Shown: one piece after another, positions 6,221-19,985 of the stretch | Position numbering within the stretch: position 1 is the first letter of the stretch | Layout: each line of letters begins with the position of its first letter | Assembly: GCF_036365525.1 (NCBI RefSeq) | Contig: NC_090403.1 | Location: 47,927,095 to 47,991,094 of the forward strand | Length of the DNA: 64,000 nucleotides | Source: Heterodontus francisci | Lineage: Eukaryota | Direction: 5' to 3' | The notes under the pieces: generated by a model | The model's database searches: none | What the model was told of the DNA's origin: nothing | Seen by the model: only the letters and a program-made list of their open reading frames with translations | Program-made: the position numbers and the translations under genes

Positions 6221-6227
6221 TGCAAGT

Positions 6228-6566
6228 TGTTGTGTGATTGCCTTTGAGAGTGATGTTCCTTTAAGATCTTAGTATGCTAATGAGCCATGTGCCAGGATGC
6301 AGTCATGTGACTCAGAGCCAGAGTCACTCTGTAACTGTAACGCCTAGAGGCTGGTCCTGTATATAGTTAGCTCTGTACTGTATATATTAGTTTAGCTGTA
6401 ATAAACCTGTTAGAGATCTTCAACCACCTGGTCTCCACACATCTCATTTATGTTAGCTTCAGTGATTGGGAAGGAATCAAAAAAATGGGAGTACTCACCA
6501 TGGGAAGGAGTAGAAAAAGGAATCCAAAGGGAAAAGTAATGTGGGTTTTAATATATAAAACCATCA
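6228..6566 (+). repeat. 5' LTR, with its last ~30 bp replaced by a 111-bp copy of the 3' flank
   Basis: 6228-6454 matches 9191-9417 with about 19 mismatches counted by eye; terminal CA at 6565-6566 abuts the PBS. Confidence 0.85.
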
Positions 6567-7332
6567 TGGTGGCAGCTGTGGTGAGAAGACAGAATTTAAG
6601 ATTGAAGGCCACAGGGAAAACTGCTTTAAAAACTGCCTCCCTACAGCTAAAAGGGAGAAAGTAAAATAAAATACTGGCCCAAACAGCGAAAGAAAGAAAC
6701 ACCTACCTCAAGCTGTAGAAGACAGAGTGCTGAACGACAGGCTGCAAATCAATCACTGCAATCGGGTGAGTCATTGTCCCAATGGTCCAGGAATCCCTGT
6801 TGAAAGAAAGCTTTGAGATGCTTGCAAAGTTGATTTTTTTAAAGGCTCAGTAAAAGAAAAAAACAGGGAAAACCCAATCTCTATCTCAGGCTGATTGATT
6901 GTTTTCAAAGACTCCCCTCCCAGGCTGATTGAAGTCGGTGCCATTACAGGAGGCGTCCGACAGCAAAAAATGCAGGAATCCTCCAGCTTGCAGCTAAAGC
7001 TTTAAAAAAAATCATCAAACCACGTAAACACAAAAAGCTTTCATTCACGCAGACAGAGTTTTTAAAAACTCATAAAACCACCCAAGCCTGAAGAATTGCC
7101 TATTGAACAGCTGTATAAACAAACTGAAGCAGAAAAAAGCACTTGAAATGCCTATTGCACATCTGTGTAAACAGACAGACAAGAGTGCTGGAAGCTAGAT
7201 AAACAGACAAGCACTGGCAAACACCTGCTCCTGTCCATCAAAGCAGCCAAGAGAGTTGTTTTTAAAGGGAAAACAGCACAGACTCATAGAATAAGGCTTA
7301 AAGCAGGTTTTAAGCAAAAGAACAGCAGGAAT

Positions 7333-8560
7333 ATGGATACCAAATTTCCCAGCATGAACTGGAAGGCCATGGATATCCTATCCAAGTGCCAACTTTTCAA
7401 AGGATGCAGTTATGCTGCACAGATCAAATAATTGTAGAACCAGAAAAGCAAGCTGTAAAAATACTAATAGCAATTGGAAATGAGGGATTACACAGAATCA
7501 ATACCTCAGGCTTATCTGACAAGGACCAGAAAGATACCACAAAGATAGGGAAAATGCTGGAAGATCAGCTCAGATTAAGAGCGAATTTTCAAATTCATCG
7601 CCTGGAATTGATGTCCACATTCAACCGCCACAGGAATCAATAGACCTGTTTGTCAGTAGATGCTGTAGTAAGGGCACTGTATGCGATTTTTCAGAAGCTG
7701 AGCTTTCAGACAGAGTAATAGAGCTGGTGATTGTATCAAAACCTATTGAAGCGTTTCAGAAGGACCTCTTGGGGAAAAAGAAAGGCCGCAGCATTGATGC
7801 ACTATTGGAAGATGGCAGGAAATAGGAAGCCATTGTAGCTGGACAACAGCATCTGCAAGCAAAGTTGCAGCCAACAGTATCGGCATGACAACCAGGTCAA
7901 AAAGAGCAAGCAAGATGTGTGGTAAGTGTGGTTGGTCCCACTCACCACGACGTTGTCCTGCATTTCAAGACCTGTGCAAGGCATGCGGTGCAAAAGGTCA
8001 CTGGACCCACCTATGCAGGAAATCTGGCTCCAAAGATGCAGCCAGAAGCCACAGTAGGACACAAGCAAGGGGCAAGGAAAGCAGCAGAGACCTGCGTAAA
8101 TGTAATCCGATACATGAAGTCCATTGTGAAACGGACCTGAGACAAGACTCAGAGAGAAGCAATTCCCAGGCAAAAGATGAACAGGTGTTCCTTATTGTGA
8201 ACCTGACACATCATGTTGATGAAGTCAAATAACTGGAAGCTTTCGCCACAATTAACATCATGTGCCCAAAGAAAGCTGGCAAATATACACCGGCATTAGT
8301 GCAAATATCCTACCAGTCCGAATACTCAAAGATATGTGCTGGAGTCATTGGAAATCAATGATACAACTGACAACTGCCAAGTTATCTGCATACAATGGGT
8401 AACCCATCCCATGCAGTGGCACACTGGCAATGCAATGCAGATATGGCAAGTTAGCGTGGAAACTACAAACATTCTACCTAGTAGATGCGAGCAGAGCAGC
8501 AGTGGCAGGACTACCAGCGTGTAAGCACCTCAACATCATCTACAACCACGAGAGCATTGC
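7333..8560 (+). pseudogene. Disrupted Gypsy gag and aspartic protease
   Basis: Gag motif ESIDLFVSR..CDF and twin zinc knuckles CGKCGWSH..RCPA..CKACGAKGHWTHLC. Protease remnant (D)TGISANILP...FYLVD..AVAGLPACKHLNII. Several stops and frameshifts; the catalytic Asp codon appears deleted near 8288. Confidence 0.8.
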
Positions 8561-8569
8561 CAAGGGGAA

Positions 8570-9052
8570 ATCTCCAAGGACCAGAACCCTCTCGCAGACT
8601 CTGACCAGCATCAAACGGTGCAGTCTGGAAACTCAGCAACAGCACAACTACGCCACACCTTCACTTCTGCTATCTAGAGAACCGCCAGCACCACGCGAGC
8701 CAGAACTGACAGGTACCGCCATGAGGCCACGTACTCTTCCCCAAACAAGTCCTTGACCATGAGCCCAAGCCCTTCAGATGTGGAGGATGAGGAGAGGCGA
8801 TGGACATGCAGTGCCTTGAGGAGGCAGAGGAGGAATGAGTTGAAGCATTGTCTGTTGGCTCTTCGAGATGAGGTGCTGGAACTTTCCAAGAATGATAAGG
8901 CCTCAAAAGTGGTCATCTTAAGAAAAGCAACACAGTATGTTAGCAGGCTGAAGGCAGAGCAACAGAAACTGAATGCAGAGAGGGAGAAACTTCAGAAAAA
9001 TCGGCAACAGCTGAGACGCAAATTCCCCGAGCAAGAGTTGTCAAACCACTGA
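8570..9052 (+). pseudogene. Captured Myc-family C-terminal fragment (Myc box IV and bHLH-LZ)
   Basis: KRCSLETQQQHNYATPS (Myc box IV) is in the protease frame. After a one-base frameshift near 8753 comes [49 protein letters not shown] plus a leucine zipper, then a stop at 9052. Confidence 0.9.
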
Positions 9053-9190
9053 GACGATATATGGACTTTTGAGCTGCTATATTTTTAAATTTCACAATCT
9101 CTATCCATGTGTAAATAATTTTGATGTTATTTAATTTTATGTGTATTTTTACTTTTAGCATACGAGGCTTATCTTTGGAAAGAAAGGGGA

Positions 9191-9448
9191 TGTTGTGTGA
9201 TTGCCTTTAAGAGTGATGTCCCTCGGAGATCTTAGTATGCTAATGAGCTACGTGCCAAGATGCAGCCATGTGACTCAGAGCCAGAGTCACTCTGTAACTG
9301 TAACACCTAGAGGCAGGTCCTATAAATAGTTAGCTTTGTAGTGTATATATTAGGTTAGCTGTAATAAATCTGTTAGAGATCTTCAACCAACTGGACTCCA
9401 CACATCTCATTTATGTTGCATCAGACAACATAAAAAGAACTCATTACA
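9191..9448 (+). repeat. 3' LTR (258 bp)
   Basis: TG...CA ends, preceded by the polypurine tract; contains TATAAA and AATAAA. Confidence 0.9.
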
Positions 9449-10419
9449 CAAGCAATGGAATCTCTAGCTTCAGTGATTGGGAAGGAATCAAAAAAATGGG
9501 AGTACTCACCATGGGAAGGAGTAGAAAAAGGAATCCAAAGGGAAAAGTAATGTGGATTTTAATATATAAAACCATTCGGAAAGAAGCCTGGGAGTTCAGG
9601 TCTTCTGATTTACTATTTCTGACAGTCCAGTGGATGTTTCTGTTGAAGATGAAGGACCGGATTGTTTTTCATCTAATCATGATTTTTATTAATTACCATC
9701 TTATATGTACCTGGAAAGTTACTAAACGATGCTTTTGACCATTTTCTACAGAAACCTGTTAAAAAAATGTATATTGGTTGGAGCTGCATGGTAGGAAGAT
9801 TTGAAATTCAATTAAACATTCCTTTCCAGTTTATTTTGCAAATTAAGGTTTGGAAGTTCTTCTGAAACCTTGTTCTCTTCTTTTTGATTTTATTTTCACT
9901 AACCATGCTCTATACGAGGACATATTTTCTTGTTCTCATTGCAGAAATTAACAAAGAATTGAATTGTAAAACTTATCTTCAATGTACCCAGGCAATTCAG
10001 TTGATTCAGGCAATTCAGGCAATGATAGTTTAAGATTTCAGAAGGTTTTCATCTATACTAAATCAGTGAGTTTGTTCCCTCAGTGGTAAAGTTCCAATAT
10101 AGGCAGGTGTAAGTTTGAGAAGTTTTTTTTTGTACTCAATTGGGACATTCAACCCATTGGATGGAAGTGAGCTTGACTGTACAATACTTCAAGAATGGCA
10201 ACTGCAGTTGACTTTTATTTCGATATATTAATACATAAGATACAGGTAATATTTGGTCTGATGATGAAATTCATGGACAGGATGGAATCTAAAACAAGAT
10301 ATCACCGTGAACATAAGAGTTGTTTTTTAATAAAAATATTGTGCATTGATGATATTTATTACCTTAGCTTATTACCTTAGTTTTTCTTCACTCCTGCTAT
10401 AAAGGTACTGAGTCTTACT

Positions 10420-17024: not shown

Positions 17025-18455
17025 ACATACAAACATACGAATTAGGAGCAGGAATGGGCCACTCAGCCCTTCGAGCCTGCTCCACCATTCAATAAGTTCA
17101 TGGCTGAACTGATTACTCCACATTTCCACCTACCCCGATAACCTTCCACCCCCTTGCTTATCAAGAATCTATCTTTTTTTTTTATTCATTCATGGGATGT
17201 AGGCGTCACTGGCCAGGCCAGCATTTATTGCACATCCCTAATTGCCCTCTACCTCTGCCTTAAAAATATTCAAAGACTCTGCTTCCACCGCCTTTTGAGG
17301 AAGAGAGTTCCAAAAACTCACAATCCTCTGAGAGAAAAAAATTCTCCTCATCTCTGTCTTAAATGGGCGACCTCTTATTTTTAAACAGTGACCCTCTAGT
17401 TCTTGATTCTCCGACAACACGAAACATTCTTTCCACATCCACCCTGTCAAGTCCCCTCAGGATCTTACATGTTTCAATCAAGTCGCCTCTTACTCTTCTA
17501 AATTCCAGCAGATACAAGCCTACCCTGTCCAATCTTTCCTCGTAAGACAGCCCGTCCATTCCAGGTATTAGTCCAGTAAACCTTCTCTGTATTGCCTCCA
17601 ACGCATTTACATCCTTCCTGAAATAAGGAGACCAATACTGTACACAGTACTCCAGATGTGGTCTCACCAATGCCCTGAAAGCTGAAGCATAACCTCCCTA
17701 CTTTTGTGTTCAATTCCCCTCGTGATAAACGATAACATTCTATTAGCTTTCCTAATTACGTGTTGTACCTGCATACCAACCTTTTGCAATTCATGTACTG
17801 GGACACCCAGATCCCTCTGCATCTCAGAGCTCTGCAATCGCTCACCATTTAGATAATATGCTTTTTATTTATTCTTCCTGCCAAAGTGGACAATTTCACA
17901 CTTTCTCACATTATACTCCATTTGCCAGATCTCACTTAATCTATCTATATCCCTTTGTAGTCCCCTTCACAAGTTACTTTCCTACCTATCTTTGTGTCAT
18001 CAGCAAATTTAGCAACCATACCTTCGGTCCCTTCATCTAAGTCATTTATATAAATTGTAAAAAGTTGAGGCCCCAGCACAGATCCCTGTGGCACACCACT
18101 CGTTACATCTTGCCAAACAGAAAATGACCCATTTATGCCTACTCTCTGTTTCCTGTTAGCTAGCCAATCTTCTATCCATGCCAATATGTTACCCCCTACA
18201 CCATGAGCTTTTATTTTCTGCAATAACCTTTGAAGTGGCACCTTATCAAATGCCTTCTGGACATCGAAGTACAATACATCCACCGGTTCCCCATTATCCA
18301 CAGCACATGTAACTCCCTCAAAGAACTCCAATAAACTGGTTAAAAATGATTTCCCTTTCACAAAACCATGTTGACTCTGCCTGATTACCTTGAATTTTTC
18401 TAAATGCCCTGCTATCACCTCTTTAATAATAGCTTCTAACATGTTCCCTAAGATA
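17025..18455 (-). mobile_element. CR1 LINE (HER1-like) 3' portion
   Basis: RT motifs QHGFVKGKS, KAFDKVP, GVPQGSVLGP, KFADDTK, VRPHLEYCVQ. A short SINE/LINE tail is nested at ~17175-17246. Confidence 0.9.
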
Positions 18456-18884
18456 GCTCATCCAAATTAATATCGCTCCACACATGAACCTAAACAGAAG
18501 GTCACGTAACATAGTCTGGATGACATCACAGTGGAGTTCCATTCCTGTTCCCCACAAGCATACACATGCCAAGTGAGCAGTATGCTAGCTAACCCACTCA
18601 TCTTGGTTCCTCATAGTGAAACTCCCAATTAATACCACTCTGCTTTTCCCTCTCCCCCTGGTGTATGTGTGTGTGTAAACTCTCCCAAAATTTTCTGACT
18701 CACTTCCTCAAGCATTATTCTACTTCTCGATTTTAATTCAACTTCCAGGGAATTCAGGCTTGAACTCAGTCAGAAGCTGAATAAGTCAGCATGTCTTGGT
18801 GGGGAAAGAAAGATAAAATAATATTGGTCTTCCTGCATGTACTGACCACTACAGTTCTGTCTTGTGGTGTATATATCTAATGAC

Positions 18885-19985
18885 TAATACTGAAGAAGAA
18901 ATTTTCCTCCACACAAGATCAAGGTTGTTCAACCTTGCCCGTCTAAGAGTGAAATCCAAAGTACGGAAAGTCCTCATCAGGGAACTCCTCTTTGCTGACG
19001 ATGCTGCTTTAACATCTCACACTGGAGAGTGCCTGCAGAGTCTCATCGACAGGTTTGCGGCTGCCTGCAATGAATTTGGCCTAACCATCAGCCTCAAGAA
19101 AACAAACATCATGGGGCAGGACGTCAGAAATGCTCCATCCATCAATATCGGTGACCACACTCTGGAAGTGGTTCAAGAGTTCACCTACCTAGGCTCAACT
19201 ATCACCAGTAACCTGTCTCTCGATGCAGAAATCAACAAGCGCATGGGAAAGGCTTCCACTGCTATGTCCAGACTGGCCAAGAGAGTGTGGGAAAATGGCG
19301 CACTGACACGGAACACAAAAGTCCAAGTGTATCAAGCCTGTGTCCTCAGTACCTTGCTCTCTGGCAGTGAGGCCTGGACAACGTATGTCAGCCAAGAACG
19401 ACGTCTCAATTCATTCCATCCTCGCTGCCTCCGGAGAATACTTGGCATCAGGTGGCAGGACCGTATCTCCAACACAGAAGTCCTCGAGGCGGCCAACATC
19501 CCCAGCTTATACACACTACTGAGTCAGCGGCGCTTGAGATGGCTTGGCCATGTGAGCCACATGGGTGATGGCAGGATCCCCAAAGACACAGTGTACAGCG
19601 AGCTTGCCACTGGTATCAGACCTACCGGCCGTCCATGTCTCCGCTTTAAAGACGTCTGCAAACGCGACATGAAGTCCTGTGACATTGATCACAAGTCGTG
19701 GGAGTCAGTTGCCAGTGATCGCCAGAGCTAGCGGGCAGCCATAAAGGCGGGGCTAAAGTGTGGCGAGTCGAAGAGACTTAGCAGTTGGCAGGAACAAAGA
19801 CAGAAGCGCAAGGGGAGAGCCAACTGTGTAACAGCCCTGACAAACAAATTTTTCTGCAGCACCTGTGGAAGAGCCTGTCACTCTAGAATTGGCCTTTATA
19901 GCCACTCCAGGCGCTGCTCCACAAACCACTGACCACCTCCAGGCGCTTACCCATTGTCTCTTGAGATAAGGAGGCCAAAGAATTG
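18885..19985 (+). mobile_element. 5'-truncated RTE-clade LINE (BovB-like)
   Basis: LLFADDAAL, FTYLGS, RLRWLGHV, GRP..RFKD and a C-terminal CxxC..H..C knuckle; one internal stop at 19729-19731. Confidence 0.9.

Follow-up and report, generated by a model that had tools for sequence, protein, structure and literature searches.

A Ty3/Gypsy element of Heterodontus francisci carrying a captured mych tail with altered E-box-reading residues

The window considered here is a 64,000-nucleotide stretch of the genome of the shark Heterodontus francisci (NC_090403.1 of assembly GCF_036365525.1, positions 47,927,095-47,991,094, forward strand). Positions 6228-9448 of the window are occupied by a decayed, non-autonomous Ty3/Gypsy element in which reverse transcriptase (RT), RNase H and integrase have been exchanged for spliced mRNA of the host gene mych. 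Two LTRs of the form TG...CA, a primer-binding site, a polypurine tract and a short target-site duplication are all present, and every feature of the element given below lies on the forward strand. The left target-site duplication, CAAGT (6223-6227), agrees in 4 of 5 letters with the right copy, CAAGC (9449-9453), and 5-bp duplications also fit the flanks of many other element copies. The 5' LTR (6228-6453), from which the final ~30 nt are absent, has the same base as the 3' LTR (9191-9448) at 206 of 225 aligned positions. Its end is replaced by a 111-nt duplicate (6454-6564) of the 3' flank (9465-9575), seen in this insertion and perhaps the result of a templated repair. The primer-binding site, TGGTGGCAGCTGTGG (6567-6581), which we take to be tRNA-Leu-like, recurs with identical letters after the 5' LTR in most of the other two-LTR copies listed, while the polypurine tract (9177-9190) was recognised by its sequence. 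Elsewhere in the window, frames at 17359-18457 and 18817-19731 resemble fragments of LINE reverse transcriptases, presumably CR1-like and RTE-like, and many SINE-like repeats are found throughout.

The coding portion of the element begins with gag (7333-8232), which in this copy contains several frameshifts and stops, and which includes zinc knuckles at ~7915-8064 (zf-CCHC_3, E 2.2e-5). A broken aspartic protease region (8260-8551), presumed to be such by its DTG motif and giving no Pfam match, follows in frame with gag across the family. Next comes a short form of the captured mych exon 3 piece (8552-9024), which is without Myc boxes I and II and the EEIDVV box IIIb. The frame at 8678-9052 reads through an altered Myc basic region (8795-8836) and then an intact HLH-zipper (8837-9019), with matches to Pfam HLH (E 3.5e-10) and to c-Myc chains (E 2.5e-19), and ends in a short tail (9025-9052) that stems from the integrase end of pol, in a different reading frame, and includes the stop. 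The preservation of HLH and zipper noted in the original prediction is thus upheld, with 10 of 75 bHLHZ residues differing from the donor, as is the replacement of two of the three residues that read the E-box: the His site at 8807 is Cys (TGC) and the Glu site at 8819 is Arg (AGG), the third reading residue, Arg 8831, being retained. The canonical basic region given for comparison is exactly that of the donor. In the case of the QHNY motif of Myc box IV, its retention was correctly read (8640-8651, in the protease frame), but a frameshift near 8695, absent from the 29 nearest copies, puts QHNY and bHLH in different frames in this copy.

When 37 copies were chosen by gag-protease alone, 18 carried mych exon 3 and 11 carried a common pol region. 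The pol-bearing relatives have the same LTR, gag and protease as the Myc element, and their Pfam matches to RT, RNase H and integrase stand in Gypsy order (gag, protease, RT, RNase H, integrase); the RT_RNaseH and Integrase_H2C2 matches are taken by us as Gypsy-type. Because relatives with Pfam-recognised RT, RNase H and integrase share its gag-protease, the Myc element is, judged by these relatives, derived from a Ty3/Gypsy family and non-autonomous. No env was seen in the four translated pol-bearing copies, in which ~100 nt or less lie between the integrase tail and the 3' LTR. The integrase tail ends in TRSGRVVKPP (3' ends of L038, L080 and L056; pol-bearing L125, L139 and L153). This motif, whose TRSGR portion presumably has a chromatin role, is found in frame behind the zipper in long Myc forms, and the medium and short forms read another frame there.

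The donor of the Myc piece is the host gene whose protein carries the database name 'myelocytomatosis oncogene homolog' in Heterodontus francisci. The piece has 89% nucleotide identity to host mych, versus 67% to a c-Myc-like gene, with the best copies at 89-92% to mych. Of 84 amino acids in the window copy, 71 are those of mych, whereas the other two host Myc genes match at 37 and 45; in a tree of 20 bHLHZ rows (none of them L-Myc) the element rows fall among shark mych with support of 92/87 and 87/80. Only three loci, c-Myc-like, N-Myc-like and mych, match the N-terminal part of Pfam Myc_N among the 119 best candidates, which were the ones scored, and a separate L-Myc locus was not seen among these. 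L-Myc had been entertained as the donor and was dropped, the database name of the host protein being mych.

In long and medium copies the end of exon 2 (190 nt, host 2690-2880) directly abuts exon 3 (4584 onward) with the intron absent, and it was therefore a spliced mRNA that was captured. The captured portion begins immediately past Myc box II, where a 7-nt word, GGATGCA, is common to pol and mych at the 5' junction; at the 3' junction, Met-Gln is common to both partners, at the protein level only. That the captured piece is without Myc boxes I and II, as originally predicted, is confirmed: with the donor's box I-II stretch as DNA query, that part was matched in the host gene only, and the other 39 of 40 scored hits (from 101 candidates) started downstream. 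In animals, LTR-mediated retrocopies are described as template-switch captures in which a piece of spliced host mRNA replaces part of the internal ORFs (PMC5131818), and by analogy the mych capture fits this route. The retrocopies described there are alike in the short shared words at switch points and in later copying as a non-autonomous element, but each is present at one or a few sites (PMC5131818). The shark chimera, in contrast, exists in thousands of copies, its single frame has survived repeated deletions, and its cargo is a Myc-family domain.

Three forms of the Myc element can be distinguished. Protease and Myc piece are separated by a modal 516 nt in the long form, about 387 nt in the medium form and 138 nt in the short form, and each distance is divisible by three and in frame. 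Despite decay, 98 of 150 copies remain in frame, and off-mode copies are mostly accounted for by private indels. Five junction types are in frame (long 5', long 3', two medium, and short), although the second medium junction is found in few copies only. In the long form the Myc piece runs back into the integrase tail in frame, whereas the pol frame was lost through a shared deletion behind the zipper. The gag start, an ATG in 48 of 55 copies read, falls in the same frame as the knuckles and the protease at the modal distances. No common frameshift was found in 462 nt of Myc coding sequence (105 copies) or in 240 nt of protease, as against several shared indels in the 3' UTR and LTR, a contrast with p 0.02-0.10. 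Because the frames align at modal distances and no frameshift is shared, it is most likely that active elements made a Gag-protease-Mych polyprotein. An apparent out-of-frame sub-family of five Glu-keeping long copies (distance 514) was rejected since the indels are at different sites and hence private, and a stand-alone mini-Myc starting at Met 8759 was rejected for the family, the ATG being found in 1 of 70 other short-form copies read. At host exon-3 positions -22, -19 and 42, short-form copies often have the host base where long-form copies differ. The forms are therefore mosaics; copies may have recombined with one another, or host mRNA may have been encountered a second time.

The replacement of E-box-reading residues extends across the family. 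A census of exact genome-wide matches to one 24-nt motif gave 746 element copies, in which the Glu site is Lys in 591, Arg in 116 and Glu in 39 (40 including the host gene), such that Glu is lost in 707. The Arg found in the window is the marker of a sub-lineage beside the commoner Lys. Copies keeping Glu are mostly of the long form (18 of 29 sampled), and Lys copies are mostly of the short form (21 of 30). The His site has CA in 25 of 38 long-form copies, and in 75 short-form copies it has CG in 32, TG in 19 and CA in 12, which resembles the mix that decay has produced at true CpG sites (868:684:561). Since the short-form His site mirrors this mix, His had, on the codon counts, changed to Arg in the source elements of the short form before that form spread, and the Cys of the window fits CpG decay of such an Arg codon. 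The order of events recorded in the copies was loss of Glu first, inside the long form, followed by loss of His. The E-box-reading set of His, Glu and Arg is incomplete in most of the family, although Arg is kept. In c-Myc, the corresponding H359 and E363 touch E-box bases (10.1101/2020.05.04.076190), and MAX E32K is reported not to discriminate the E-box from scrambled DNA (10.64898/2026.04.01.715400). The host mych protein and nine orthologues read retain His and Glu.

The original prediction finds partial support. The basic-region changes are close to fixed across the family, and the refuting case it had named, that other copies keep HxxxE, is untrue for most copies. On the other hand, the particular letters of the window (Cys, Trp, Ser and Ala) are not the family state, the Trp, Ser and Ala being minority states seen in 4, 1 and 7 of the 29 nearest copies, respectively. 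The reservation that the substitutions might be post-insertion decay applies to Cys, a CpG change, and probably to Ser and Trp, and fails for the losses of Glu and His, which are lineage-wide.

Selection was assessed in 150 copies by setting changes found in 15% or more of the copies of a form against rare ones, CpG sites excluded; 20 of 170 copies had no assignable form and were left out. Gag-protease gave 39:38 for shared changes versus 2493:873 for decay (omega-like 0.36, p 2e-5), indicative of purifying selection and of the ability of the test to detect it, and the protease region alone was likewise purifying (0.35, p 0.004). Myc exon 3 gave 24:12 versus 2208:976 (omega-like 0.88, p 0.72), rising to 1.40 at a 25% threshold, although mixed positive and purifying selection could be hidden inside this value. 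The exon-2 piece is purifying (4:6, 0.24, p 0.026), and the parts of exon 3 gave 6:6 for the HLH (0.51, p 0.24), 5:1 for the zipper and 3:0 for the basic region (p 0.29). No shared stop was found among 36 shared non-CpG changes in exon 3, which is weak evidence because only ~1.2 would be expected. Depending on the threshold, 8-16 of 154 codons show frequent amino-acid change, and both His and Glu belong to that set (P 0.007-0.03), a probability that is somewhat optimistic since the sites were picked for being changed in the window copy. Fixed synonymous differences from the host gene (5 of 7) were considered as a sign of selection and set aside, as the host branch by itself would account for about this number. 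The evidence is mixed, in that the frame is open and DNA reading was specifically lost, with the rest lacking clear conservation.

By sequence, the HLH-zipper dimer interface is intact across copies. Among 13 dimer-core positions, frequent change is found at two, both conservative (V to I/L at 49 and L to M at 73), and a Leu-to-Pro change in the zipper is common to 6 of 26 medium-form copies. Engineered c-Myc with H359A/E363A (Myc-HEA) co-precipitates Max and keeps non-specific DNA binding, and is reported as dominant-negative only when over-expressed (10.1101/2020.05.04.076190). Binding of Max by the element's Myc tail is thus plausible and, given the preserved interface, would be expected. 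QHNY, the HCF-1 motif of Myc box IV (PMC7793627), is retained in 58 of 82 copies, yet box IV as a whole is not kept better than the HLH or the zipper, and the proposal in the original prediction that the product tethers the particle to chromatin via HCF-1 finds no specific support.

The following history would account for these observations. A Ty3/Gypsy element would have co-packaged spliced mych mRNA, and while the capture itself is evident, it is presumably by template switching of the reverse transcriptase at short shared words that RT, RNase H and most of the integrase came to be replaced by the 3' portion of mych, from just past Myc box II to near the stop. The resulting non-autonomous element, its copying presumably dependent on pol-bearing relatives, would have lost further stretches by in-frame deletion, all the while specifying, in an evident frame and presumably in translation, a single Gag-protease-Mych polyprotein with a Myc tail that may still pair with Max but has no activation domain. 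Variants without Glu, and later without His, then became dominant, presumably either because a DNA-blind tail is less harmful to the germ cell than an E-box blocker or by hitchhiking.

What benefit, if any, the Myc tail brought to the element admits several readings. About an even chance is given to the reading that the tail was a passenger: translated and competent to bind Max, weakly constrained, and with its reading of the E-box lost. Against a passenger of this kind are the enrichment of change at His and Glu, which exceeds the expectation for pure hitchhiking, the purifying signal in the exon-2 piece and the leaning of the HLH in the same direction.

A selected Max decoy is a distinctly less probable reading, but one to be taken seriously. 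Here the Myc tail, possibly freed by the protease, would draw off Max in germ cells, at the expense of either Myc or Mga/PRC1.6, and thereby favour expression or copying of the element, with loss of E-box reading turning it into a pure dimer sink. The setting for such a decoy is provided by mouse cells, where Max with Mga in PRC1.6 represses germline genes (PMC4820925), and by zebrafish, where mych mRNA is maternal (PMC2323570). In agreement with this reading are the five in-frame junction types (allowing that the second medium type is on few copies), a dimer core mostly unchanged or conservatively changed, the place of His and Glu among the most frequent changes, and the precedent of Myc-HEA, which binds Max and is dominant-negative on over-expression (10.1101/2020.05.04.076190). 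In addition, purifying selection on the Gag-protease of Myc-bearing copies shows that the polyprotein was selected in cis. However, the exon-3 piece lacks overall amino-acid constraint at either threshold, the zipper lacks any (5:1), a proline is found in the zipper of some medium-form copies, and pol-bearing relatives persisted without Myc. A diffusible decoy would, moreover, help all elements alike, making selection on any one of them weaker. That the element was selected for the Max-sequestering role suggested in the original prediction receives no support from the amino-acid selection test. In its fullest version, and equally tentatively, the element may have served as an anti-Myc tool, in which only the Max-binding half of mych was captured and kept in frame through every later deletion while E-box reading evolved away. 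The resulting Max sink could then relax Max-dependent control, by Myc or by Mga/PRC1.6, in the germ line of the shark, and so help the family to reach thousands of copies.

It is improbable that the Myc piece was pure stuffer, irrelevant as protein, with its frames due to chance and to microhomology of coding sequences and its basic-region changes the random marks of successful source elements. The neutral-like ratio of exon 3 would suit such a piece, as would the weakness of the missing shared stop and of the contrast in shared indels. But five in-frame junction types would be expected at 0.4-1% by a one-in-three rule, before microhomology bias, and the exon-2 piece has a purifying signal; moreover, the deletion behind the zipper did leave the pol frame. 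Slightly less probable still is that the basic region was repurposed, its added positive charge making it a non-specific nucleic-acid binder or a nuclear import signal for the particle that acts other than through Max. The change of Glu to Lys or Arg in nearly all copies, that of His to Arg in the short form, the non-specific DNA binding kept by Myc-HEA (10.1101/2020.05.04.076190) and the integrase-tail TRSGR being no longer in frame in medium and short forms are in line with a basic patch, yet only three or four substitutions are involved, the basic-region test is not significant, and Gag has zinc knuckles already. Private post-insertion decay of the window copy can be dismissed as the explanation of the Glu and His losses, refuted by the census at Glu and by the CpG-like mix at the short-form His site, while holding for Cys, probably for Ser and Trp, and also for the frameshift and the Met.

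Capture of Myc by retroelements has well-known counterparts. The v-myc transducing retroviruses such as MC29 make a Gag-Myc fusion and are defective and helper-dependent, and transforming retroviruses capture Myc in an activating form. Like the shark element, viruses of the MC29 type have spliced myc in frame behind gag, replacing pol; the shark element differs in its Ty3/Gypsy order, in having no env seen, in its germ-line spread and in having mych as donor. Because the activation domain was never captured and E-box reading was lost, the shark element should not transform. Here a germ-line Gypsy element multiplied the opposite form of Myc, one that has no activation domain and that eventually lost E-box reading too, until it was present thousands of times. 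If selected, such an element would amount to a decoy for the Myc/Max network that is encoded by a transposon, and even as a passenger it shows a transcription-factor domain surviving inside a selfish element.

Omomyc-type mini-proteins consist of a bHLHZ in which dimerisation is kept and specific E-box reading is lost. In this respect they, Myc-HEA and MAX E32K are like the shark tail, for which dimerisation is predicted, but all of these are engineered or tumour variants, unlike the shark element, and the zipper changes of Omomyc (chain 5i4z) are not among the frequent changes of the shark family. Myc-HEA is altered at the same two positions as the shark element but keeps the activation domain (10.1101/2020.05.04.076190).

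Host-gene capture by LTR elements is, from the published descriptions, already known (PMC4299795, PMC5131818, PMC13317346). The crocodilian ERVs and maize Bs1 are, like the shark family, endogenous LTR elements carrying host mRNA (PMC4299795, PMC13317346). For instance, crocodilian ERVs with captured KIT-ligand or nectin3 are reported to number nine and six, and their near-whole ORFs to be under purifying selection (PMC4299795). The shark family, by contrast, numbers thousands of copies, and what it carries is a truncated transcription factor whose exon-3 ratio is neutral-like. A literature search at the level of titles and abstracts found no Gypsy family spreading an activation-less, DNA-blind Myc; repeat databases (Repbase, Dfam) and supplements, which could hold the family, were outside its scope.

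With respect to the size of the family, the exact matches of the census, together with about 6% decay per copy, suggest roughly 3,000 copies. Only the best of 4151 and 2893 first-look candidates were scored, which biases the copy sets, and duplicated loci were removed (4 in one set, and 7 plus the host gene in another). Copies differ by 11-12% at non-CpG sites, 6.4% in the closest pair, and the Myc piece is broken by a stop or frameshift in 78 of 82 copies, as it is in the window; by these figures the burst is old, as is every copy examined. Contigs from organism B span the short-form protease-Myc junction, and contigs from organism C join the Myc end to the 3' region of the element. With such element-specific joins in two other organisms, the family probably predates a species split. 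A longer Gag-Myc protein from another species was not among 7 hits out of 1081 candidates, which is weak evidence. Contigs of runs guessed to be RNA hold many divergent pieces over the stretch, from which strand, level and protein are not readable.

The element has also left a trace in the public annotation of the species. Public Heterodontus francisci gene models named Myc-like or N-myc-like (P0001-P0004, P0006, P0008 and P0078) are copies of it, and six such proteins explain spurious 'N-myc-like' entries. Of these models, P0078 is 1346 amino acids long and has a Myc-like piece beside RING and SPRY-type Pfam matches.
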